NCBI RefSeq assembly: GCF_006345805.1
Contig: NC_043010.1
Location: forward strand, 45,260,001-45,324,000
DNA: 64,000 nucleotides
Direction: 5' to 3'
From: Octopus sinensis
Lineage: Eukaryota
In this document: piece after piece, positions 2,261 to 62,510 of the stretch
Layout: the number at the start of each line of letters is the position of its first letter
How positions within the stretch are numbered: position 1 is the stretch's first letter
Notes under the pieces: model-generated
Told to the model about the DNA's origin: nothing
The model's database searches: none
What the model saw: the letters and a program-made list of their open reading frames with translations, nothing else
Position numbers and translations under genes: made by a program

Positions 2261-2491
2261 TATTTCTTTATTACCTACAAGGGGCTAAACACAGAGGGGA
2301 CAAACAAGGACAGACATAGGTATTAAGTCGATTACATCGACCCAGTGCGTAACTGGTACTTAATTTATCGACCCCGAAAGGATGAAAGGCAAAGTCGACC
2401 TCGGCGGAATTTGAACTCAGAACGTAACGACAGACGAAATACGGCTACGCATTTCGCCCGGCGTGCTAACGTTTCTGCCAGCTCGCCGCCT
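2261..2491 (-). mobile_element. SINE family A, young Tx1-type tail, full length with 14-bp TSD
   Basis: TSD ttacaacagaaacc at 2247-2260 and 2492-2505; tail ends aataaagaaata on the minus strand. Confidence 0.9.
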
Positions 2492-3165: not shown

Positions 3166-3750
3166 ATTCTTTTCTGCACTAGGCATAAGGCCCGAAATTT
3201 TGGGGGAGGAGGCCAGTCGATTAGATCGCACCCAGTATGCAACTGGTACTTAATTTATCGACCCCGAAAGGATGAACGGCAAAGTCGACCTCGGCTGAAT
3301 TTGAACTCAGAACGTAACGGTAGACGAAATACCTATTTCTTTATTATCCACAAGGGGCTAAACACAGAGGGGACAAACAAGGACAGACACACGGATTAAG
3401 TCGATTACATCGACCCCAGTGTGTAACTGGTACTTAATTTATCGACCCCGAAAGGGAAAAAGGCAAAGTCGACCTCGGCGGAATTTGAACTCAGAACGTA
3501 GCGGCAGACGAAATACCTATTTCTTTACTACCCACAAGGGGCTAAACACAGAGGGGACAAACAAGGGCAGACACGCGGATTAAGTCGATTACATCGACCC
3601 CAGTGTGTAACTGGTACTTAATTTATCGACCCCGAAAGGATGAAAGGCAAAGTCGACCTCTGCGGAATTTGAACTCAGAACGTAACGGCAGACGAAGTAC
3701 GGCTACGCATTTCGCCCGGCGTGCTAACGTTTCTGCCAGCTCGCCGCCTT
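3166..3750 (-). mobile_element. Nested trimer of SINE family A
   Basis: One head followed by three bodies; two internal junctions read aa(g/t)aaagaaata|ggtatttcgtct on the minus strand (about 3333 and 3517). Confidence 0.9.
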
Positions 3751-4805: not shown

Positions 4806-5379
4806 TGTGCTTGCGATAGTAATGCTAGGAGAAAGCAGAAAGGGAATAGTGACTAGAATTATTGGTACTACTTATTGAAGACGGCTCATCTATTGTGGAA
4901 GAAAACGGAAAGAAAGTTCACCTCGTATACGCTTTTATTTTTATCTATTTATTTTTACTGAAGAAGAATGAGTCACAGAAATGGCCTACCAGAGAGCATG
5001 AAAATGGCTTTAGTTTCTTCCCAGCTACGCAAGGCATTATAATATATTAGTGGCTTCGTCATATTGACTGGCATGCGGTTACAATATAAACTGACTTCTT
5101 TCCTCTCTCTATGTCCTCCTCGACCTGATTCGCTTTCTTTTTCATTTTAGCTAGTATATATTTTCGTATCTCAAAGCAGACGTTTTCGTAATTAAAGGTA
5201 GCTACTTTCACAATAATTATTGGGATTAAATTACGTTACAAAAATTAATTTATAGCGAAACTAACAACACTAAATCTGTTGTGGAAGCATTTTGAAAGAC
5301 TCTAAAGTACTTGATGTAATTGTCGTCTATTCTAGGCGCAGTCGAATTCTTGTCTGTATATCAATATATATTTCTTTAT

Positions 5380-5601
5380 TGCCCACAAGGGGATAAACAT
5401 AGAGAGGACAAACAAGAACAGACAAACGGATTAAGTCGATTACATCCACCCCAGTGCGTAACTGGTACTTTATTTATCGACCCCGAAAGGATGAAAGGCA
5501 AAGTCGACCTCGGCGGAATTTGAACTCAGAACGTAACGGCAGACGAAACACCGCTAAGCATCTCGCCCAGCGTGCTAACGTTTCTGCCAGCTCGCCGCCT
5601 T
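5380..5601 (-). mobile_element. SINE family A, Tx1-type tail, with TSD
   Basis: Full head to tail; flanks gtctgtatatcaatata and gtctgtatattaatata. Confidence 0.85.
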
Positions 5602-5904
5602 GTTGCCGTCTGTATATTAATATAACTAATATCAACCTCCTTGTTCAGACTTCAGCGTGCATTGGACCAAAAACTTTAAGGCAAAGATTTATTATACCAC
5701 TTACTGTATTATTGTCGGATAATGATTTCTCCCATGGATACAAAGCTACAATATGTGTAAAGAGAGTAAATCGATTAAAATCAATTAGAATACTACTAGT
5801 ATTACTGCTACTTTATCATGCCCGTGGTGAGTGAAAGCAAAAATCGCTTTCTGCGAAGCTTGAACGAAAAACAAAGAAACAAAGAAACAAAGAAATATTG
5901 ATTA

Positions 5905-9160: not shown

Positions 9161-9390
9161 AGGCGGTGAGCTGCCAGGAACGTTAGCACACCGGGCGAAA
9201 TGTTTAGCGGTATTTCGTCTGCCGCAACGTTCTGAGTTCAAATTGCGCCGAGGTCGACTTTGCCTTTCATCCATTCGGGGTCGATAAATTAAGTACCAGT
9301 TACGCACTGGGGTAGATGTAATCGACTTAACCTCTTTCTTTGTCCTTGTTTGTCCTCTCTATGTTTAGTCTCTTGTGGGCAATAAAGAAA

Positions 9391-9392
<2 letters not shown>
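9161..9392 (+). mobile_element. SINE family A, Tx1-type tail, in (TA)n
   Basis: Full head, core and tail; atattatatatata on both flanks. Confidence 0.9.
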
Positions 9393-14895: not shown

Positions 14896-16150
14896 TTGGG
14901 TCGGCAACTAAGTTCCCCCCGTTTTTTAAATTTTGGAATCTATTTTTTTCGGAAATTCTATTTTTGAATCATTTTGGAATCTTTTTTTTTTCTAGTTAAT
15001 TTTAGTTAATTTTTGTTCATTTCCAGATAATTAAAATGGAATGTTAAGTTAAGAAAAATGAGCATTTTCGACACCTCCTTCATTTTGCTTTTAATCAAGG
15101 TTCTAAGGCCGCAAAAGCTGCTCGCGACAGCGACATTTGTGTTGTGTATGGAGAGAGTGCTATAGCTGAAAGAACCGCTCGTGATTCGTATGCCAAGTTC
15201 AAAAATGGAAATTTTGACCTCAAAGACGCGCCTCGTTCAGGACGTCCAGTTGAATTCGATGAAGAGCGATTAAACCAACTTTTGCACAAAAATTCTCGTC
15301 AAACGACAAGGGAACTGGCAGAGAAAATTGAATGCTCCCGCACTGCTATAGAGAAGCATCTTCACTCGATGGGAAAAGTTCAGAAGCATGGGTTTCGCAT
15401 GCTTTAAGTGACAACAACAAAAATCAACGAGCCACAATCTCCGCTGATTTGCTTGCTCGTCACCGCACAACTCACGAACACAAGCAACGATTACTTTACC
15501 GAATCGCTACTGGCGACGAAAAATGGTGCCTGTATATCAATATGAAGCAGCGTAAGGAATGGCTTAGCCCCGGTAAACAAGCGACATCACGCGTGAATCA
15601 AGATCTTCATTCACGTAAAACGATGTTGTGCCTATGGTGGGACTGGGAAGGGATTATCCATTGCGAATTGCTTGAACGGAACCAAACGGTCAACGCGGAA
15701 CTCTGTTTAACAGATGGAACGACTCAATACGGCTATTCAAGAGAAGACCTAATCGGCAGCATGGCGTTCTACTACACGACAACGCCCGATTTCATATCGC
15801 TAATATGACCAAGGAAGGCATTCAAACGCATGGCTGGGAAGTGCTGCCACACCCGCCATACTCTCCTGATTTGGTACCAACAGATTTCCACCTCTTTCGA
15901 TCTCTTTCAAATGTTATGCGCGGAGTTTCGTTCAATACTGATGCAGAATTGAGAGCTTGGTTAGATCAATTTTTCGAGTCGAAATCGGGTGATTTCTACC
16001 AATGAGGTATTGGAAATCTTGTTGAACGTTGGGAAGAAGTTCTAAACAACAAGAGTGAATGCATTATTGAGTAATTAGTTGTTATTTTTTATTAAACCTT
16101 TTAAAACATTTCAATTTAAAAAAACAGCGGGAACTTAGTTCCCAACCCAA
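14896..16150 (+). mobile_element. Full-length mariner (DD34D) transposon, decayed
   Basis: TIRs of about 37 bp (ttgggtcggcaactaagttcc... / ...ggaacttagttcccaacccaa), TA on both flanks, 1255 bp. Confidence 0.97.
15036..16074 (+). pseudogene. Mariner transposase pseudogene
   Basis: MEC*VKKNEHFRHLL..., RSGRP, WVSHAL, TGDEKW, HDNAR, HPPYSPDLVPTDFHLF; several frameshifts and stops. Confidence 0.95.
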
Positions 16151-16370: not shown

Positions 16371-16439
16371 CCAAATATTAATATAAGTGAAAAATATATA
16401 CAAACCATAAGTATACTATATCTTAAATATTACATACTT

Positions 16440-16652
16440 ATTTCTTTATTGCCCACGGGGAGCATAGAGGAGACAAACAAGGACAAAGGGATTAAGTCGA
16501 TTACATTGACCCCAGTGCATAACTGGTATTTATTTAGTCAACCCCGAAAGAATGAAAGGCAAAATCGACCGCGGCGGAATTTGAACTCAGACGTAACGGC
16601 AGACGAAATACTGCTAAGCGTTTCATCCGGCGTGCTAACGATTCTGCCAGCT
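16440..16652 (-). mobile_element. SINE family A, Tx1-type tail
   Basis: tatttctttattgcccac tail; approximate TSD aatattacata. Confidence 0.8.
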
Positions 16653-32739: not shown

Positions 32740-33560
32740 ACACACACGCGCGCGCACATGAACACACACAGACACAAAGACTTATCTTCTTTCTGGTGGA
32801 TAACTCATAATAGACCCCACTTTTCTTCATACCATGATATATGTAAACACAAGAGAGGATGATGTGATTTCAGCATAAACAGATTCGTGTAGGTAAAAGA
32901 TTGTGCTAGAGAATAGTGATCTAACTTTGTGGTTTAGACATATATGCAAGACACAAGATACGATTTTAACGGATACTTCTATCCACAGCACGTAATGGCA
33001 GACGAAATACGACTACGCATTTCGCCCGGCGCGCTAACGTTTCTGCCAGCTCGCCGCCTTCAGACAGAAAGGTATTGAAAGAGAGAACGAGTGAAGGAGA
33101 CCGACAAATACACTTTTCACACACACACACACCCACACACACACAACCACACACACACACATACACACACACAACACACACACACGCGCGCGCACATGAA
33201 CACACACAGACACAAAGACTTATCTTCTTTCTGGTGGATAACTCATAATAGACCCCACTTTTCTTCATACCATGATATATGTAAACACAAGAGAGGATGA
33301 TGTGATTTCAGCATAAACAGATTCGTGTAGGTAAAAGATTGTGCTAGAGAATAGTGATCTAACTTTGTGGTTTAGACATATATGCAAGACACAAGATACG
33401 ATTTTAACGGATACTTCTATCCACAGCACGTAATGGCAGACGAAATACGACTACGCATTTCGCCCGGCGCGCTAACGTTTCTGCCAGCTCGCCGCCTTCA
33501 GACAGAAAGGTATTGAAAGAGAGAACGAGTGAAGGAGACCGACAAATACACTTTTCACAC
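32740..33560. repeat. Tandem duplication, 438-bp period
   Basis: Identical non-repetitive sequence at offset 438, bounded by (CA)n. Confidence 0.95.
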
Positions 33561-38692: not shown

Positions 38693-38925
38693 AAGGCAGC
38701 GAGCTGGCAGAAACGTTAGCACGTCGGGCGAAATGCTTAGCGGTATTTCGTTTGCCGTTACGTTCTGAGTTCAAATTCCGCCGAGGTCGACTTTGTCTTT
38801 CATCCTTTCGGGGTCGATAAATTACGTGCCAGTTACGCACTGGGGTCGATGTAATCGACATAGTCCCTTTGTATGTCCTTGTTTGTCCCCTCTATGTTTA
38901 GCCCCTTGTGGGCAATAAAGAAATA
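38693..38925 (+). mobile_element. SINE family A, Tx1-type tail, inserted in a SINE head (site A)
   Basis: Junction aataaagaaata|agaaacgttaacacgccgg. Confidence 0.9.
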
Positions 38926-39159
38926 AGAAACGTTAACACGCCGGACGAAATGCTTTGAGGTATTTCGTCTGTGTGAGTTTGGATTTATTGGTAATTATTA
39001 TTGGAGTGCGTCTGTATAGTAAGTGCAAGTTTTTATTGACTGTTTTTGTGACATTTCCAGTTATAATTATTGTTCTTGTTATAATTATTTGTGTGATAGT
39101 CTTCGTTCGAAAACTATCGTGTGTTTTCCCCTGTGGGGGAAACATTAATTGCTGGCAAG

Positions 39160-40532
39160 ATGTCGAAAAGTGTAACTTCGTCTGGCGAAGAGTCGTTAAC
39201 CGACAGGAAGGCAACAAAGATAGAAAGTTTAATATTTGGCGATATTTCGGATTCTTCTGAAAGGGAATTTCACCAACCATCAATGTGTATTGTTGTAAAG
39301 AAGAATATTGACGTGAAAAGCCTTCAAACAGAAGAAAATAACCAAAAAAGAAGTTTTGCGTCGGCGGCTGGAGGTGGAACCTGCCAGCTGTCGACAGACA
39401 AAAATGACCTGATAAAGTACGAAGATATGATAACAATTGAAGACGGTGTTGTGAAGGTTCAACCCCCGGAAGAACTATTAATGTTAGAAAAAAGAAAAAC
39501 AATTATTTAAAAATTTTACAGTCTAAAAGGAAAAAAAATTGTGCGAAGAGAAAGTTGAGAAATGCTTGAAACCCATCTGGCAGGATACCACATACCTAAT
39601 CAGAGGGAAGAAGTTTGGTACTATCAAAGTACGACTAAAAGATATAGAAACTGCACAAATGCACTCAGTTAAATCTTTAGAAACGGAGGACGTTGTTTTA
39701 ATTCCAGTATATATGGGAATGAGGACGTCAAAGATACGTATACGAAAGGTTCCACCTCAAGTCGACCCTATGTGATTGATAATATAGGAAGATAATATAA
39801 CAAAAAATATAAAAGAAAATATAACACAAAAAGTATAAAAAGGAAGATAATATAACACTCCTTCAGGCTACTGTCACAGAAAAGGCTTATTGGACCGGTA
39901 AAACGGTTCACCTCCTAATACAAGCAGAACAGTCAATTTTGGAACAGTTACTGGAGAAAATAGAAATTGGGGAGGAATTCCTTAACGTATTCGTCGAGGG
40001 GCGTAAGCTCCGATGTTTCCAATGTGGCCAGCTGGGCTATATAAAAAAAAACACTGTAGAGACGACGAGGAAGAATCCGATGGGGAGGAGGAGGAGGAGG
40101 AGATAGGGAGAGAAACAGAAGAAAAGAAAGCAACTAACAACAAGAGAAAAATGGAAAGCTCAAATCAACCAAAACAGGTCGAACTAAGACCAAAAAAGGA
40201 ATACTGCGAAAAGAGACAAACCAAAAATAGTAAGGAAGGAAGCAGAAGACAGAGGGATAGTCGCGTTATACAGCAAAAATGAAGATTTAATGAGAGAAAT
40301 AAAAGCGAAAAGATCAGCCGCTAGGATTGCAGAACTTTCTGATAAATATAAGCACTATGAGTTCTACGAAATGGATGAAAAGACTCATAATGTATTACTT
40401 AACACGTATACTCGTAGAAAGTCGGTGTCGATGATGAGATTGGATTTAATCAATCCATTTTTCAAGACTTGCCACCTCCGAACCCTTCAAGAAAAGGTGG
40501 AGAGTCCCTTTCCGCAGGACACCCCGGATTAA
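39160..40532 (+). pseudogene. Tx1 ORF1 (gag-like), disrupted
   Basis: LIPVYMG...IRIRKVPP; VFVEGRKLRCFQCGQLGYIKK.C zinc knuckle at about 40012-40058; acidic and basic tail; frameshifts. Confidence 0.75.
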
Positions 40533-43500
40533 ATATGCGTAAATGTTCATGGCCTGATGTCTAGCTGGAAGCAAGGGCGCTTCCTAAATGACATCAGGTC
40601 AAGAACATTGGTTGTAATTGTTGCAACGGAAACTCAGGTGAAGGAGCCAAGAGATCTGCTCCCCTTCCTGAACGGCTATGAGAAATACGTTTCTCTGAGT
40701 CGGGCGGGAGGTGTTGGTGGGGTTTTGGTTCTACTAAAAAGAAACCAGGTAGCCGAGAAAAAGTTGTTGGTTTTTTTCTGATCCAGAAGGCAGGTTGGTC
40801 GTTCTCGACCTGACATTCAATTGTGGCAAGATAATCAGGCTGGTTGCAATGTATGCACCCAATGTTATGGGCTCGGAAAGTGAATATTTTCGTGACCTGT
40901 GCAAGTTCCTGGCCACGTCGCATTCGCTAGTATTGATAGGAGACTTTAATACAATCGATGACGCACACACAGATTGAGTTGGCTCGAACAGGAATAGAAA
41001 ATGTAACCCTGGCTTACGGGATCTGCTAAGTCACTTTCAGCTGGCAGATCCATATAGGATAGAACACCCGAACACTCCACAGTGGACGTGGTCAAATAGT
41101 GACGGGTCTTCCATAACATATCTAGATAGGGTTTTAATTAGAAAAACAGATATGTCCATAGCCAAGTGTTCACAGTTTTATCTAGTCAGCTACAGTTGTC
41201 ACAAGATGGTTACCTGTAAGCTGACAGTAGATAAGTTGCAGACAGGGATCTGGCTACTGAAAACTCAATACGTCCCTTTTGGCGATTGAGGAGTACAAAA
41301 AGCAGATCGAGATGTTAATACAGAGGGCATTGACAGGTACCATCATTAATAACAAATGGTGGTACACCCTAAAAAGAGCCATAAAATATGAGTCTATTAG
41401 GTTTTGCATAAGTTAGATAAGAATAAGAGATGGTCTAGTTAAGGAACTAGAAGAAGCCTGGAGGACTGGCAATGCGGACCAAGTGAAGGTGAAGAGACTG
41501 GAGCTGAACCAGCATCTTGAAACCCAACACATGGGAAGTATTGCCAGAGCTAAGTTACGTGCGATGGGAAGTGAAGGAATTAAGGCTGCTGGATGGCCCC
41601 GAGTGGTGGAAGCTCGACAAGGAAATAGGTCTACTATTCGGTCTTTGACGAATCAAAATGGTGTCTTGGTAAACGAACCCGAGAAAATGTGTGAGGTACT
41701 TCGCCCAGCTGTTCGGGGGTGATGGCGGTCCTGATGGTCCTCGAGGACTTTCTTGCCGAGCTGCGTGCCTCTCGGGGTCGGATACTGAGTCTTGCGAAGG
41801 GCCGATCACGCCTGTGGAGGTAATGGAGGCTATGGCCGACTGTAAAGCGGGTAAGTCGCCGGGAATTGATGGTCTTCCGTACGAGCTGTATAAATGTATG
41901 CCAGACTTGTTCGGGCCCTACTGGATGATGTGCACGCGAACTGACAACAGAATGGGTTTATCCCCAGACCTGTGCGCCGAGGAGTAGTGACGTTGGTCAG
42001 AAAGGACCCGGACAAGAGGGACGTTTTAGATAACATCAGGCCCATCACTCTGTTAAACGCAGAAGTGAAGATTTAGGCCATGATCTTAGCAAAAAGGTTG
42101 GCGCGTGTCGCGAATTGTATAGTCGAGAAGGCACAGACATGTGCCATTGCAGACAGAACCATCCAGGATAATCTCTACCTTATTCACTATACCATAGAGA
42201 GGGTTGGTGATAAATCTGGCAAAGGTAGGGCATTGGTACATTTGGCCCAGTCTAAAGCTTTTGATAGGGTTGACCATCGATACCTGACGACTGTGCTTGC
42301 GCGGTTCGGCCTAGGTCTTGGCTTCCTCAGGTGGTTTATCACTTTGTATCACAAGATTGACTCGATAGTTCGGGTGAACGGTTTCCTTTCGAAGCCGTTC
42401 TGCATCAGGCGCTCGGTTCGTCAAGGATGTCCGCTCTCACCACTTTTGCATGTGGTGACTCTCGAAACCCTACTGCGAAGGTTGAGTGGCATCCCGAGAG
42501 AACTAGGTTTAGAGGAGTTTGTTACAGCTTATGCGGACGATATCACTATCAGCGTAACCACACTAGCAAACCCACGTGAAGTGGGTAAAGCTATTGAGGT
42601 TTATGAGACGGTGGCAGGAGCAAAGATTAACCGGGAAAAGTCAGTCGGCTTGCAACTCGGCACCTGGGTTGGCAAGTTGATGCCTTCAGACAGTGTTGTT
42701 GGGCGCTGGACAGAGGGACCGGTTAACTTGCTGGGAGTCTGGTTTGGACCAGGCCTCCAGATAGAGAAGAAATGGACGGAGGTTTCGAACAGGGTGGCTG
42801 CAGTTGTCAAGACCTGGTATTGGCGGTGGCTATCCTTAAAAGGGAAGGAGGAGGTGGCCAATATGTTTATCGCATCGGTCATTACCTACCGCCTGACAGT
42901 CGTGCCCTTTCCGGATTCATGGTTGATCAAGTTGGAGAGACAGCTCTTTCGCTTTTTGTGGGAGGGCAGGTTGCGACTTGTGAAACGCTCCGTCTGTTGT
43001 CAAAAGCCGTTAAAGGGAGGTTTAGGGATACATTGGTTAATGATGCGCAGGCATGCGTTGAGGTTGAGATATCTCTGGATTCTCCTGGCTGGTGAACGGA
43101 TGTGGTCTTCACTGGCCAAACAAAAGTTCCACGAGTTCAAAAATGTTTGCAAACAGGAAGCCTGGTGTTTTCGTAGACCGAGGTCGAGTGAATGACATAA
43201 AGAGTACCGTAAGGCCCTCCTGCTACTCCGGCGCTCGGGCAACGCCAGCGGTGGGGGCTCTACACGAATTTTAGATATTGGGTTGGTAGAGTCTGGATGT
43301 GACGATGGCCTGGAGGCGACTCTAGGTCTCGGGTTTATTCAACTGGATAGCCTGTTCCATTGTACATTCGGGTTGATAACGTTGGACAACTTCCAAAAGT
43401 CTTTGACCTGGCGATGTTACAGAGGTGCCTTGCCCGTTTGGGATAAGACATGGTAAACGTCAGTCTCCGACCTGTCCAAGATGCGGGGGAGACAGGGAAA

Positions 43501-43880
43501 CCGTCCCTCACGCTATTGTCCAGTGTCCGGAGATATCTGAAATGTGGGTTTAAGCTGAACACCTGTTGTCCGGCGAAGGAAGAGTACGGCTGTTGACTGA
43601 GTCAATTATAAAAATTGACCCACCGGAAGTTTTAACAAGCGAAGGTAAGGATTATTTTCTCACGGTTGTAGCAATAGAGAAAGAGGCACTATGGAAGACT
43701 AGGATAAAAGGGATTGAGACAGATAACTTTATCTCCGGCCACTATTTACGATTTTTTTTTTTTTTTACTTTTCATTTGGAAAGGAAGGTGTGGCTGGAGA
43801 AGAGGTCTCTGTCGGAGAGTATGTTCAAAAAGAGATGGAAACATGTTGCACAAGTGTTGTGCGTGCAAGGAACCGTGTGA
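40530..43880 (+). pseudogene. Tx1 ORF2 (APE endonuclease - RT - CCHC), disrupted
   Basis: VNVHGL, ATET, LIGDFN, WTW..YLDR; KSPGIDGLPYELY, RPITLLN, KAFDRVDH, RQGCPLSP, YADD; CPRCGGDRETVPHAIVQC. Confidence 0.93.
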
Positions 43881-44344
43881 ATAGGCTATAAAAGAAAAAC
43901 AAAAAAAGTACCAGCGATAGATCGGGGCTTGTGGGGTCGGAGCGTGGCCTCATCATCGCTACATTTGTGCTGTCTGTGTATTGTTAATTTCATTCGATTT
44001 TAAAAAAATTTTAACATAATTCTTATATTCATATTTTATGTAAAATCATAACATATTACTGATCCCAATCAGTTGTTTTGTCCATTTCTGTGTTTGGCCC
44101 CCTGTGGGCAATAAAGAAATTGGTATTTCGTCTGCTGCTACGTTCTGGGTTCAAATTGCGCCGATGTTGATTTTGCCTTTCGTCGTTTCGAAATTAAGTA
44201 CCAGCTGCGTACTGGGGTCGATCTAATCGACTAGCCCCTCCCCAAAATTTCGGGCCTTGTGCTTAGAGTAGAAAAGAATATAGGTACATAAAAACACAGA
44301 AGCATTTCAAGAGGAATAAGTTAGAGATAACTTATTATCGTAAC

Positions 44345-46369: not shown

Positions 46370-47015
46370 TAAAGGCGTCGAGCTAGCAGAATCGTTAGTA
46401 CGCCGGGCGAAATGCTTAGCCGTATTTCGTCTGCCGTTACATTCTGAGTTCAAGTTCCGCAGAGGTCGACTTTGCCTTTCATCCTTAAGGATGAATTGTC
46501 CAGCGGTGGGGGGGGGGGTGAGCAAACGCAAAGACAAACAGTTACACACACATAGCTTCTTTCAGTTTCCGTCTATTAGATACTCTCAGAAGGTTTTGGT
46601 TGGTCTGGGCCTATTAGTAGAAGAAACTTGCCCAAGTGCCAGACAGTGGGATTGAACCTGGAACCATGTGGTTGGGAAGTAAACTTCTTACCACAAAGCC
46701 ACACCTGCACCTTTTAGTTCGGAAAAAAAAATTGGAGAAATGTTCTTGGTAGTGGTGCTTCTAAATCAAGACAGTGACAAATTAAGTACCAGTTATGCAC
46801 TGGGGTCGCTATAATCGACTTAATCCCTTTTGTCTGTCCTTGTTTGTCCCCTCTATGTTTTGCCCCTTGTGGGCAATAAAGAAATAAGAATCGTTAGTAC
46901 GCCGAACAAAATGCCTAGCAGCATTTCTTCCGTCTTTACGTTCTTAGTTCGAATTTCACCGAGGTCTATTTCACCTTTAATCCTTCCCAAGTCAATAAAA
47001 TAAGTACCAGTTGAG
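46370..47015 (+). mobile_element. SINE family A dimer (site A junction) interrupted by a 289-bp copied segment
   Basis: Junction aataaagaaata|agaatcgttagtacgcc at about 46886; insert at 46494-46782. Confidence 0.85.
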
Positions 47016-47544
47016 TAATACTGTGTAACACGATTTTTGTCCTTGGGTAGCAACTGTTATTTCCTATTTGCTTACCCCAAGGAAATAAGAAAAATGGCTA
47101 ATATTTCCTTCAAACTTTGCTTTTGCTACGTTTATTTAAAACCCAAAGAATCCCTCTCAGTACGTGACTACGATGCTCCCCCACTATGCCTGCTCATAAT
47201 TAGAGATGCACATATTGTCAGTCACTAAGGGACATGTTCAAGTGGTTAATGTCAAGTAACTGAAAAGCAACTCTGTGGTATTAAACAGAATATTTGTTGT
47301 ATCAATGTTTCTGCTTCAATAACTCAGCTATGAATCTGTCTGAAATGTAACGGAAAATAGGTTGGTTTCAAAATATGTATGTCTATGGCATAAAAGCAAA
47401 GTTTGAAGGGAATAGTAGTCATTTCCTTTGATTTCTAGATTGAAGCAAATATGAAATAACATTTACTGACTAAAGACAAAAAAATTAAAATGTAAAACTT
47501 GTTACACAGTATTATTGCTGTTTTTTTTTTCTTTTCTTTTATAT

Positions 47545-48405
47545 CATTTCTACTTCAGGCACAAGACCTGAAGTTTGAAAGAGGGGAAAATTCGATTGCA
47601 TTGACCCCAGCATGCAACTGGTATTTTTTCATTGACCCCGAAAAGAAAGCAAAGCAAAGAGGACCTTGGTACAATTTGAACTCAGAAGGTAAAGACAAAC
47701 AAAATACAGCTAAAGAATCTTTTGCTCGGTGGGCTTAACAATTCTGACAGCTCGCCGCCTTAATTGCGATTTTTAATATCTTTTGCATTATTGACAAAAA
47801 GCCTGAAATTTGGGTGGGGAGAGCCGAGTCGATTACATTGGTGCTTATTTCATAGACCCAGAAAAGATGAAAGTCAACGTAGGTGGAATTTGAACTCAAA
47901 ACATAAAGATTGAAGAAATACGGCAAAGCATTTTATCCGACGTGCTAAAGAATTGCCATTTTTAATATCGCCAACATCTGGTGAGCTGGCAGAAACGTTA
48001 GCAAGCCGGGCGAAATGCTTTGTGGTATTTCGTCCGCCGCTGCGTTCTGAGTTCAAATTCCGCCGAGGTCGACTTTACCTTTCATCCTTTCGGGGTCGAT
48101 AAATTAAGTACCAGTTACGCACTGGGGTCGATGTAATCGACTTAATCCCTTTGTCTGTCCTTGTTTGTCCCCTCTATGTTTAGCCCCTTGTGGGCAATAA
48201 AGAAATAAGAATCGTTAATACGCCGGGTAAAATACTTAGTGGCATTTCGTCCATCCTTAAGTTCTGAGTTCAAATTTCGCCGAGGTCAACTCTGCTTTTC
48301 ATCCACTCGGAGTTGATAAAATAAGTACCAGTTGAGTACTAGGGTCGATGTTATCGACTTACCCCCAACCCCGAACTTGCAGACCTTGTGTCAAAATTAG
48401 AAGCA
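47545..48405. mobile_element. SINE family A cluster: two minus-strand copies and a plus-strand dimer
   Basis: Site A junction at about 48207, aataaagaaata|agaatcgttaatacgccggg. Confidence 0.85.
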
Positions 48406-48519
48406 ATTTTGCCATCATCATTGTTGTTGCCAATATCACCACCATCCCGAACATCATCAATGTTCGTCTTTATCATAGCTGTCAATATTGCTATTAGAAA
48501 ATCGCGCGTGAATACATTT

Positions 48520-48900
48520 CTTTTATCTTTTACTTGCTTCAGTCAAGTGGCCATGCTGGGGCACCGCTTTGAAGGGTTTAAGTCGAACGAGTCGATCCCA
48601 GTTCTTAATGTTTTTAAAGGCAGGTACTTTTTTTATCGGTTTCTCTTTGCCGAACCGCTAAGTTTCGAGAACGTTAACAAACCACCAATTGTCCAGCGGT
48701 GGGGGGTGGGGTGAGCAAGCGCAGAGACAAAGAGTTACACACACATAGCTTCTTTCAGTTTCCGTCTATTAGATTCTCTCAGAAGGTTTTGGTTGGTCTG
48801 GGCCTATTAGTAGAAGAAACTTGCCCAAGTGCCAGACAGTGGGACTGAACCTGGAACCATGTGGTTGGGAAGTAAACTTCTTACCACAAAGCCACACCTG
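48520..48900 (-). mobile_element. SINE family B, diverged
   Basis: ttacttgcttcagtc...ttaccacaaagccacacct. Confidence 0.8.
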
Positions 48901-52424: not shown

Positions 52425-52734
52425 GCATATATGCACACATGTACATACATATGTATGTATAGAGGTATGCATATATGGGTACAAATCGTCACGAAACATG
52501 TATACATGCATACCAGAATAAAGGCATATATTTACACACATATATATACGCATAAACATATTTATATATATTTCATTATATATATATATATATATATTAT
52601 GAAACGAACAAATGTCCTTCCCGATCCACACATACACACTCATGTACGTCATCAACATCATTTTCTAAATAGTTTACCAGAGGAGGGTGTTTCTGGTAGT
52701 AATGACAATTATCCTGAAATTTTGCTGTAGAGAG

Positions 52735-54010
52735 CGCTATCAATTATTTTATCTAACCCAAAAAGGATGAAAGGCAAAGTCGACCGCGGCAGTACTTGAA
52801 CACAAAATGCAAAACGGGATGCCATACTGCAAACCATTCCGTCCTGCGTGCAAACGATTCTGCCAGCTCGCCGCCTTAATAATTCTTTCTGCAAGGCGGC
52901 GAACTGGCAGAAACGTTAGCACGCCGGGCGAAATGCTTAGCAGTCTTTATGTTCAGAGTTCAAATTCAATCAAGGTCGACTTTGCCTTTCAGCCTTTCGG
53001 GATCGATAAAATAAGTACCAGTTGCATACTGGGGTCGATCTAATCGACTGGTCCCCTTCCCCAAAACCTCGGGCCTTGTGCCTAGAGTAGAAAAGAATAA
53101 TTCTTTCTGCTATAGGCACAAGGCCTGAAATTTGCGGGAAGGAGAAGCTAAATTACCTCAATGCCAATACTCAGCTGGTGCTTTTTTTTTATATCAACAC
53201 GAAAGGATAAAAGGCAAAGTTGACCTTATTGGAATTTGTACTCAGAATGTAAAAGTCTGAAGAAATTCCCCGAAGCTTCTTATCCGGCATGCTAACCCCT
53301 TTACCAGCTCGCCGCCCAAGTAATCCTTTTTATTATAGGCACAATACAATTTTTTTTTTGGAAGGGACGATAGGTCGACTACATCGATCCCGGTGCTCAA
53401 CTGGTGTTTATTCCGTCGACCCTGAAAGGATGAAAGGCAAAGTGAACTTCGGCGGAATTTGAACACAGAATGTAAAGCCGGAAGAAATGCCAGCTCGCCG
53501 CCTTAATAATAATTTTTTCAACAATAGACACGAGGCCTGAAATATTGGGGGAGAAGGACTGTCGATTATATCGACCACAATGGTACTTATTTTATCGACC
53601 CCGGAAGAGATGCAAGGCAAAGTAAACCTCGGCGGAATTTGAACTCAGAATGTAAAAACGGACGAAATGCCGCTAAATGTTACCGATTCTGCCAGCTCAC
53701 CATCCCAATAATAATATTTTCTACTATAGGCACAAGGCGGAATTTGAACTCAGAATGTAAAGACAGACGAAATACCTATTTCTTTACTACCCACAAGGGG
53801 CTATACACAGAGGGGACAAACAAGGACAGACAATCGAATTAAGTCGATTACATTGACCCCAGTGCGTAACTGGTACTTAATTTATCGACCCCGAAAGGAT
53901 GAAAGGTAAAGTCGACCTTGGCGGAATTTGAACTCAGAACGTAACGGCAGACGAAATACGGCTACGCATTTCGCCCGGCGTGCTAACGTTTCAGCCAGCT
54001 CGCCGCCTTA
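52735..54010. mobile_element. Dense cluster of about 7 SINE family A copies
   Basis: Repeated gaaaggcaaagt..acc..ggcggaatttgaact; site B junction at about 53776. Confidence 0.88.
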
Positions 54011-54349
54011 TAATTTGAGTTTCTCTCATGGTATCTACAGCAGTATTGTTGGTTCTAACAGAACATCCACGTTTAAATGGGGGTAAATTTTATCTCTTGA
54101 ATAGTGCCTCTATCTCTAATATATACTTATACATCTATGTAAATGTCTTTTACGAGAAAAAGAATGTCTTTCACATTGACGGTGTTTAGCTTGGTTAGTT
54201 AGGTGTAGCTAATATCTTATGCGCCGCAGAATTATTTTACCACGTAACCAAATATCATCTCTAACTATCAAAGCCTGATTGTAAATCATTGGCGATGAAT
54301 AGCAAGTTCAATTTATTCGCCTCCATGCACTTAATCAGATGTATCAAAG

Positions 54350-55750
54350 TAGAATTGCTAAAGCGCCGGGCAAAATACTTTGTTATAATTAGTTTCTCAT
54401 GTTCAAAGTTCAAATGCTGCCGAGGTCAACTTTTTTTTCTTCTGGAATCGATAAAATAAAGTACCAGACAAGTACTGCAGTCAATTTAATATTCTTAAAG
54501 CACCCCAGACGTGAATAGAACCATGATAATAGACTAAAGCTGTAATATATATTTGTATTACATTGGCTTCAAATTTTGACATAAGGTCAGCAATTTCGGG
54601 GGAGGGCGTAAGTCGATTACATCGACTCCAGTGCTGGTGCTTATTCCATCGATTCCGAAAGGATGAAAGGCAAAGTCGACCTCGGCAAAATTTGAACTTA
54701 GCACGTAAATCCAGACGAAATGTCGCTAAGCATTTTGTCCAGTGTGCTAACGATTCTGCCGATTCGCTGCCCTATTGGTGAGTATTATATTGATTTCAAA
54801 TTTTGGCATAAGGCCAGCAGTTTCGGGGGAGAGGTAGATCGAATACATCGATCCAAGTGCTCAACTGGTACTTATTTTATCGACCCCGAGAGGATGAAAG
54901 GTAAAATTGACCACGGTGGAATTTGAACTCAGAACGTAAAGATGGACGAAATGCTGCTAAGCATTTTGCCAGGTGCGGTAACGATTCTGCCAGCTCACTG
55001 CCTTATTGGTGAATATTATATTACAAACCACAGAAAGGCAGCAAACCAGCAGAAGCGATACTGCGTCTGGTATAATGCTTTGCGGCATCACCCGGTTCTT
55101 TACTTCCCGAGTTCAAATGTCGACGAAGTTGACTCTGCCTTTAATACTTTCGGAATCGGTAAAATAAGGACCAGTTGAGCACTAGAGATCGATACAATCG
55201 ACTTATTCCCACCATCCATAAAATTCTTGGCCTTTGCCAAAAATTTGAAAAAATATTACAAACCACAGAGGAGAAATGTACACCTGTTAAATTTGAAATT
55301 AGAATGGTAGGGATTAACAAGTGTAAGTCATTTAGTCTAGCATTTCTGATATATTTCCATGTCACACACCATTAATACTGGTTTGTTTTGACATTGCACA
55401 AAATAATTATAGTTCATGTGAAGGATATAGTGTGATGCGATATTGAGATCTTTTTCTGTCTCATTATAAGCACAGTAAAGGTTTCTCATTTTGACGCAAT
55501 ACTAACAAATTTGGCGAGAGGGTTTAGTTGATATCATCGACGCCAGTACTTGATTAGTACTTTATTTTATTGATTATGAAAGGATAAAAGGCAAGTTTGG
55601 CTTCGACAAAATTTGAACTCAGAAATATCCCTCGTGATCAACTATGCCTTTCTTCCAAGTAAACTACCAATCAAGCTCTGGCGTCGATGTCATCGGCTAA
55701 CCCCTTTCCCAATAAATTGTTGGCCTTTTGCTTAAATTAGAAGCCATTAT
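54350..55750. mobile_element. Cluster of older SINE family A copies
   Basis: Diverged copies at about 54350-54480, 54565-54770, 54795-55005, 55035-55250 and 55500-55740. Confidence 0.7.
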
Positions 55751-61453: not shown

Positions 61454-61680
61454 GTTGTTGTTGTTTAGGTGGGAGCTGGCAGAATCGTTAGTACACCAGA
61501 CAAAATGCTTTGCGGCATTTCGTCCGTCGCTACGACCTGAGTTCAAATTCCACCGAGGTCTACTGTGCCTTTCATCCTTTCGGGGTCGATTAAATAAGTA
61601 CTAGTTGAACACTGGGGTCGATGTAATCGACTCATCCCCTTCCTTAAAAAAACTGCTGCCCTTGTGGCAAAATTTGAAAC

Positions 61681-61715
<35 letters not shown>

Positions 61716-61958
61716 TATTATTATTATTGTTGTTGTTGTTGTTTAGGTGGGAGCTGGCAGAATCGTTAGTACACCAGACAAAATGCTTTGCGGCATTTCG
61801 TCCGTCGCTACGACCTGAGTTCAAATTCCACCGAGGTCTACTGTGCCTTTCATCCTTTCGGGGTCGATTAAATAAGTACTAGTTGAACACTGGGGTCGAT
61901 GTAATCGACTCATCCCCTTCCTTAAAAAAACTGCTGCCCTTGTGGCAAAATTTGAAAC

Positions 61959-61990
<32 letters not shown>
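61441..61990 (+). repeat. Tandem duplication, 278-bp period, of a family A SINE between (ATT)n tracts
   Basis: Identical diagnostic variants at offset 278. Confidence 0.93.
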
Positions 61991-61997: not shown

Positions 61998-62510
61998 TAA
62001 GGCGGCAAGCTGGAAGTGGGGTTAGCGCGATGGACGTAATGCTTAGCGGTATTTCGCCCGTCGCTACGACCTGAGTTCAAATTCCACCGAGGTCTACTAT
62101 GCCTTTCATCCTTTCGGGGTCGATTAAATAAGTACCAGTTACGCACTGGGGTCGATATAATCGACTTAATCCGTTTGTCTGTCCTTGTTTGTCCTCTCTG
62201 TGTTTATTTTTCATTCTTTCGGGGTCGATAGAAGAAGTACCAGTTGAACACTGGGGTCGGTGTAATCGATTCATCCCCTCCCCACCAAAGAAACTGCTGC
62301 CCATGTTGCAAAATTTGAAACTTTTACTATTACTATTGACGGAATCGTTAGCAGAAACGTTAGTAGAATCGTTGGCAGCATTTCGCTTGTCTCTATACCC
62401 TGAGTTCAAATTGCACTGTGGTCGACCTTGCCTATCATCCCTTCCTGGGTCGATAAGCATTTGAGCACTGGGGTTGATGTAATATATATATATCTTGTTC
62501 CAAAATTTGA
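61998..62510 (+). mobile_element. Further SINE family A copies and fragments
   Basis: Head, core and both tail types present. Confidence 0.75.

Follow-up and report, generated by a model that had tools for sequence, protein, structure and literature searches.

Heads of tRNA-type SINEs in the window (the whole 64,000-nt stretch of Octopus sinensis DNA analysed here) are targeted by young SINEs at two fixed positions, of which site A, at position 16 of the 232-nt SINE unit, is a true, recurrent integration site. The other position, site B, lies 33 nt further on at position 49, and our data support a partition of SINE subfamilies between the two. A preliminary description of this DNA had proposed site A as a second fixed target in the SINE head, citing tails that end at about 38925, 46886, and 48207; these ends proved to be exact, the next letters are AGAA(A/T)CGTTA in each case, and a second fixed target is supported. 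Site A had been placed near the A box, which is correct as to the region; the junction actually falls inside the box, after base 4 of TGGCAGAATCG (TGGC^AGAATCG, where ^ marks the junction). Taking together the two leading readings discussed below (two diverged endonucleases or a single relaxed one), it is highly probable that site A is a real independent target determined by sequence.

The window is AT-rich (GC 0.38) and dense in SINEs, with 43 BLAST matches to one 232-nt unit. Units have a common head (positions ∼1–90, with the A and B boxes) and a body extending to ∼170, followed by one of two tail classes: a Tx1-type tail that ends in AATAAAGAAATA, whose last 44 nt match the end of the LINE (38972–44121) at 82%–86%, and a non-Tx1 tail, which is the older class. 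The A box of old-type heads fits TRRYNNARYNG and that of young heads has one mismatch to it, and a B-box-like GTTCAAATT at unit positions 76–84 fits GTTCRANNC at eight of nine positions (motifs as given in the available part of PMC5391098). A tRNA-derived SINE is expected to have A and B boxes, a 3′ tail in common with a LINE, and flanking duplications, and all of these are present, the duplications being of 11–18 bp. No tRNA parent was found by Rfam on 5300–5700 or by ARAGORN on the whole window, the unit had no snRNA match in Rfam, and the Tx1-type tail patterns had zero matches in viral contigs and zero in metagenome contigs.

BLAST searches with one unit and with the tail confirmed the earlier count of 11 complete Tx1-type tails, seven of them at site A or site B. 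Three tails end at site A (38925, 46886, and 48207) and four at site B (3334, 3518, 53777, and that of the LINE, 44121), and all seven insertions in heads share one orientation. The other four tails (2261, 5369, 9392, and 16439) lie outside SINEs and have duplications of 11–17 bp; one further tail, at 62207, is truncated. Assuming ∼25 heads and uniform, independent insertion, the binomial chance that three or more of 11 tails share one given head position is 1.2e-9, which rises to 5.7e-7 once the 464 possible positions are allowed for. Set against the criterion of Kojima (>20% of copies at one target type), the figures for this one window are 7/11 in heads and 3/11 at site A. The coordinates of the main features are collected in Table 1.

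Table 1. Insertions at site A, site B, and elsewhere, with their hosts and duplications (positions within the window)
Feature	Position	Strand	Remarks
Young SINE unit, ctAtg/gggcaataaa tail, at site A	46373..46886	+	8/121 mismatches to young majority, unit 34–165; positions 1–33 probably host-supplied; later insertions interrupt at ∼46484–46775
A-box position, unit 12–22; site A junction after 4th base	46384..46394	+	TRRYNNARYNG (available part of PMC5391098)
Left copy of 18-bp target site duplication, with two host-type letters (unit T20, T27)	46388..46405	+	18/18 identical to 46887–46904
Right duplication copy and remainder of old host SINE from unit 16	46887..47012	+	36/128 mismatches
Young SINE unit, ctAtg tail, at site A	47980..48207	+	6/132 mismatches; without diagnostic duplication
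Remainder of old host SINE from site A, non-Tx1 tail	48208..48420	+	24/132 mismatches
Young SINE unit, ctAtg tail, at site A	38694..38925	+	4/132 mismatches; possible 10-bp duplication
Host head, site A to LINE	38926..38971	+	38959–38971 is the LINE's left 13-bp duplication
Degenerate LINE, Tx1-like by sequence (broken ORF1, AP endonuclease, RT, zf-RVT region), at site B	38972..44121	+	
Right duplication copy (44122–44134) and remainder of host SINE, other tail type	44122..44290	+	
Site-B array: two ctGtg-tail units, then host remainder from position 49	3215..3749	-	
ctGtg-tail unit at site B, host internally deleted	53736..54008	-	
ctGtg-tail unit outside SINE	2261..2491	-	14-bp duplication starting GGTTTC (site-B-like)
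ctAtg-tail unit outside SINE	5369..5600	-	AT-rich 17-bp duplication, 1 mismatch; read-mapping reference
ctAtg-tail unit in TA microsatellite	9161..9392	+	∼15–16-bp duplication
ctAtg-tail unit, 5′-truncated	16439..16652	-	exact 11-bp duplication, AG before it on 3′ side

Sites A and B have a common 8-bp core, TRGC^RGWA. When 449 positions were compared with site B over 8 bp, site A tied for a place in the top four and scored best of those on its strand. At 12 bp its rank is 22–30 of 441, and we rejected a broad likeness of the two sites: it holds for 8–10 bp only. A better match to site B exists on the opposite strand, with no insertion there in the window. One old head carries, at 62340–62375, the 12-nt site-A sequence three times in near-tandem arrangement, perhaps as a trace of aborted insertions or of slippage. 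All site-A hosts (38926, 46887, and 48208) carry A/T at unit positions 26–27, where most heads have GC, and this may reflect a target preference; outside these hosts it is found in three of 18 listed heads, two of the three being a duplicate pair, a count that was noticed post hoc, excludes the left duplication copy, and is not used as evidence.

The copies are divided by tail position 201 (ctAtg vs. ctGtg), a better marker than gggcaataaa; the latter had been suggested as a mark of site A and is not absolute, as the LINE bears it yet sits at site B. The letters GGT come next in all four ctGtg SINEs (2261, 3334, 3518, and 53777) and in the LINE; of these, the LINE and three SINEs occupy site B, and 2261, which lies outside any SINE, has GGTTTC. 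Among the six ctAtg SINEs (5369, 9392, 16439, 38925, 46886, and 48207), three are at site A, three lie in AT-rich sequence that hardly resembles it, and none is at site B. The association was significant when the four of four ctGtg SINEs at GGT (2261 counted as site-B-like) were compared with zero of six ctAtg SINEs (Fisher P = 0.0048) and when site A was compared with site B by the position-201 marker with the LINE included (P = 0.029); for SINEs at A or B only (three vs. three, two site-B copies sharing one array), P = 0.10. Full-length ctGtg copies have G44 and C49 in their own heads (3/3), and C49 abolishes site B. Heads with C49 are those at 2491, 3749, 54008, 33059, and 33497 (all on the minus strand) and at 46373, the last belonging to the ctAtg copy 46886; C49 goes with the subfamily that inserts at site B and is nearly absent from organism C.

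The only complete tail that belongs to a LINE is that of the element at 38972–44121, present in one copy with a 13-bp duplication at site B and broken by stops and frameshifts. Judged by its sequence, this LINE is Tx1-like, because its reverse transcriptase (RT) scores 176 bits against "transposon TX1 149 kDa" versus ∼71 against human L1 ORF2; scores against R2 are 24–47. An RT domain is present (RVT_1, E = 2e-20), the match to an endonuclease domain is weak (Exo_endo_phos, E = 0.011, below the cut-off and on a broken fragment), and tblastn of an intact relative onto the LINE covered the endonuclease to the C-terminus. An N-terminal AP endonuclease with an RT, and insertion into a multicopy target with duplication (in one copy), agree with the Tx1 clade. 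The closest relative of the LINE is 56%–58% identical, and the closest named relative of its RT, from Argonauta hians, 53%, which points to a probable octopod host. Related ORF2 endonucleases vary in the segment that aligns with the L1 hairpin loop. The preliminary description had advised a search for LINE copies at site A; the window holds none, nor any non-homologous cargo at that site, nor a second LINE of the same kind. The split between sites is supported for SINE subfamilies; the two LINE subfamilies that the description raised, and with them two endonucleases, are an inference, because no LINE at site A was found.

Four of 24 listed sequencing runs were mapped onto one ctAtg unit (5369..5600) with unique flanks. 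Three contig runs, X15 (organism A), X3 (organism B), and X6 (organism C), were used, and the raw reads of X21 (11 mapped) were left out of the counts, which are presence data and not frequencies, with a reference unit that favours ctAtg copies. The joint from the tail to site A (5585 to 5369, marked "between: not known") was seen in all three contig runs, in at least one contig of X15, at least four of X3, and at least eight of X6. In X15, loose ends fall exactly on site B in at least 962 records, and the consensus of these ends is the GGGTAGTAAA tail (agreement 0.7). The GGGTAGTAAA letters make up 8.7% and 10.7% of depth at two tail positions in X15, 12% and 14% in X3, and 0.12% and 0.28% in X6, and the head letters G44 and C49 make up 22% and 26%, 19% and 23%, and 0.4% and 0.6%, respectively. 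X6 has the most site-A joints among those listed, with the GGGTAGTAAA tail nearly absent. The site-B subfamily therefore looks lineage-restricted, since its tail and head letters are nearly absent in X6, and site A appears to be in use even where this subfamily hardly occurs.

Other joints in the same runs were recorded and not counted toward site A. The joint 5536 to 5369 ("between: not known"; at least 18, 16, and 15 contigs) may represent site A, site B, or neither. Two joints of X3, 5387 to 5578 and 5601 to 5563, would agree with insertions close to site A, one truncated and one full-length, each seen from one side only. A joint running from the tail straight to the head start (5601 to 5369) occurs in at least 24, 22, and 13 contigs, more than the site-A joint, and is absent from the window; it is possibly a third site or a product of end-to-end template jumps. 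The joint 5534 to 5574 corresponds to a 39-nt head deletion (∼unit 28–66) that removes site B, has high depth in X15, and possibly marks a further subfamily.

A doubled head is absent in all six SINE insertions in heads, each of which reads as a single seamless head; the sixth case starts at site B within the array. The host letters in unit 16–33 are kept at 46886 and replaced at 48207. We infer that the cDNA, because it is homologous to its target, joins it in register, so that host head and insert make up one full unit. The R2 elements join their 5′ ends in register by homology in a similar manner. Each new copy thereby probably gains a complete promoter.

We favour, with a probability of roughly 0.55, target-primed insertion by two related Tx1 partners with diverged endonucleases, SINE subfamilies being split between the sites. 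A young tRNA-type SINE would have taken the 3′ tail of Tx1-like LINEs, whose proteins would copy it, as the shared tail and the 11–18-bp duplications suggest. The endonuclease would nick the bottom strand in the heads of older sister SINEs, at TGGC^AGAA in the case of site A or TAGC^GGTA in that of site B, with the end of the tail as the starting point of reverse transcription; what is observed here is the junctions. The ctAtg type would go, with a loose preference, to site A and to other AT-rich sites, and the ctGtg type, like this LINE, to site B. The most likely agents would be two related families of Tx1 partner whose endonucleases have diverged around a common RGC^RG core. The 5′ end of the cDNA would then join in register, and host head and insert would read as a full-length SINE with A and B boxes.

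The strongest competing account, which we consider rather unlikely, has one relaxed endonuclease nick both sites, while a read-through extension at the 3′ end of the RNA anneals to the nicked strand of other heads at the matching site. Pol III would transcribe a master SINE located at one of the sites and continue into its host, and a subfamily would inherit its site from the master locus. The 8-bp core shared by sites A and B means that one enzyme could cut both, and read-through is expected because seven of 10 SINE units lack any run of four T and the first such run lies 89–148 nt past the site-A tails. The AG between the tail and the exact 11-bp duplication at 16439 fits as well, as does a tail-AG-head joint among those listed for X3. 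Annealing of downstream target sequence on the RNA, which would serve as the model here, raised R2Ol insertion from 12% to 96%–98% in the data accessible in PMC6530143, and R1Bm reportedly needs the same annealing (PMC7265360, in the part available); these elements differ in that they are autonomous and have rDNA targets, the R2 endonuclease moreover being of another type. Against a single relaxed enzyme, however, sites A and B become less alike beyond 10 bp, the better match on the opposite strand was left without insertion in the window, and the off-head ctAtg insertions are in AT-rich DNA that little resembles site A.

It is also conceivable, if unlikely, that we are observing SINE homing into the promoters of kin, with self-avoidance, in which the site is set by the read-through 3′ end of the RNA and not by protein. 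If so, the host head would make a full Pol III unit even of a 5′-truncated insertion, older sister copies would be overwritten with the new tail, and the G49C loss of site B in its own head would shield the site-B subfamily from its own insertions.

The preliminary description had named copying of a single dimeric subfamily as the observation that would overturn it, and a comparison of hosts with the units in front of them did not bear this out. The three site-A hosts are mutually 69%, 76%, and 75% identical and the units upstream 88%–92%. Mismatches to the young majority over unit 34–165 amount to 13%–28% in the hosts (16/124 at 38925; other counts in Table 1) versus 3%–7% in the units in front, a difference of three to four times at each locus. 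The hosts also end differently, with two tail subtypes and one truncated. At 46886, unit 16–33 is the same on both sides (18/18), including two old-type letters; we read this match as a duplication, and its length fits the 11–17-bp duplications of other copies. The upstream copy of 16–33 at 48207 departs from its host in several letters, and the 10-bp match at 38925 is the same as the consensus and thus uninformative, so the diagnostic duplication is found at one of the three loci. A single host (38926–38971 and 44122–44290) received both a SINE, at site A, and the LINE, at site B.

These comparisons bear on retroposed dimers, or a template jump from old-type SINE RNA (with a stop at position 16) to the 3′ end of Tx1-tail RNA, which would explain why no doubled head precedes any composite. 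The tail-to-head-start joints common in the contigs are what end-to-end jumps would give, and a G>A at unit 26 is common to two site-A hosts. The low likeness of the hosts, their differing tails, their three- to fourfold greater divergence, and the host letters on both sides of the 18-bp duplication at 46886 nevertheless make such an origin improbable at site A. A dimeric SINE subfamily was rejected, as the downstream monomers are neither as alike nor as young as the upstream ones. Hosts at site B are younger (7.7% mismatches), and some site-B composites may be dimers.

Guidance by Pol III factors, raised in the preliminary description as another source of two discrete sites, is disfavoured and in our judgement very improbable. 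TFIIIC/TFIIIB bound to SINE heads would set the integration complex at fixed distances, in keeping with both sites being at fixed offsets in a Pol III head, with all seven insertions in the same orientation, and with the Dictyostelium TRE elements, which are guided in this way (PMC5391098, available part). The TRE5 and TRE3 elements, however, land outside the gene, ∼50 bp upstream or ∼100 bp downstream, according to the same source, whereas the cut here is at one base within the A box. Moreover, the start of the site-B sequence recurs at the 2261 insertion, which has no SINE at its flanks, and the hosts are probably decayed copies, up to 28% diverged. Chance, recombination, or an assembly artefact, for which one can cite the mere three site-A cases and the SINE-dense window, is extremely improbable given p ∼6e-7 after correction and a joint that recurs in three independent runs from three organisms.

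The pattern of two sites and two families is already known, because the accessible portion of Kojima (2015; PMC4494074) reports it for crocodilian Tx1-Mar LINEs and SINEU, which have two hot positions in Mariner-N4 and families split between them. There too a SINE is moved by Tx1-clade LINEs into another transposable element; tandem SINEU copies separated by a duplication were once mistaken for a dimer subfamily, and the preference is partial, at 13%–90% of copies (PMC4494074). The Mariner target is unrelated to SINEU, which has an snRNA head, and the two sites are separated by ∼590 bp, face in opposite directions, and are not alike (PMC4494074, in the part available). In the octopus, by contrast, the target is a homologous Pol III head, and the sites are 33 bp apart with one orientation, a short core, and a seamless head. 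Membership in the SINEU/Tx1-Mar group was rejected, as the unit has no U1/U2 snRNA match in Rfam and the target is a SINE head and not Mariner-N4; the manner of working is similar. Further Tx1-clade LINEs with AP endonucleases have multicopy targets, including Tx1L of Xenopus in Tx1D, Keno (U2 snRNA), Kibi, and Koshi (PMC4494074, same portion), and these targets are a DNA transposon, snRNA genes, and microsatellites, whereas here the target is a SINE head.

Two other systems resemble ours in their link to Pol III genes. Dada DNA transposons likewise insert within the A box of tRNA-type promoters, with positions clustered in two gene regions; they are DNA transposons in real tRNA genes and move without reverse transcription (PMC8869645, in the text available). 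The non-LTR elements TRE5 and TRE3 of Dictyostelium are tied to Pol III genes as here, at sites outside the gene that are defined by distance and set by TFIIIB/TFIIIC, whereas ours are base-defined and inside the head (PMC5391098, available part); a TRE-type, factor-guided element was rejected, as the junctions fall within the head at single bases. The octopus SINEs OR1, OR2, and OK (Ohshima and Okada 1994, as cited in the available text of PMC4758252 and PMC4824008) are, like the SINE described here, tRNA-derived; a motif search of full texts matched no paper. The literature searched, on cephalopods or otherwise, yielded no description of a Tx1 LINE or SINE that targets a SINE head; an earlier one is possible in Repbase or the subscription literature, which lay beyond the search. 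In the available text of PMC4758252, PMC8967140, PMC4824008, and PMC9115989, octopus SINEs or L1-Tx1 are mentioned and SINE-head targeting is not.

What is new here is a SINE that targets heads of its own kind, with a single seamless head left by each of all six SINE insertions in heads. This would extend target-specific Tx1/SINE pairs to a target that is the SINE's own kind of promoter, with a simple selective pay-off, as truncated copies would regain an A box, and with a route for a new tail to take over an old SINE family. A pair of sites separated by 33 bp, with a subfamily split and a differing species distribution, offers a natural test of whether protein or RNA annealing selects the site. 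Repeat annotation and SINE dating would mistake such composites for dimers or single copies.

Finally, we noted several features of the repeat landscape. At 52680–55210, ∼12 SINE copies are densely chained, many head-to-tail or head-to-head, with new heads beginning within the AT-rich tail of the preceding copy. At 32986–33497 and 61466–61970, identical SINE pieces recur in local tandem duplications spaced by 438 bp and 278 bp, the result of recent duplication or an assembly artefact. At 62000–62280, a unit with its tail truncated at position 208 is followed by an inverted fragment and then by a body with the other tail. The sequence at 46484–46775 inside the 46886 unit consists of an inverted copy of a different repeat (found also at ∼48680–48800) and ∼60 nt of unrelated sequence. 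An ORF fragment at 15332–15808 (plus strand) presumably resembles a mariner/Tc1 transposase.
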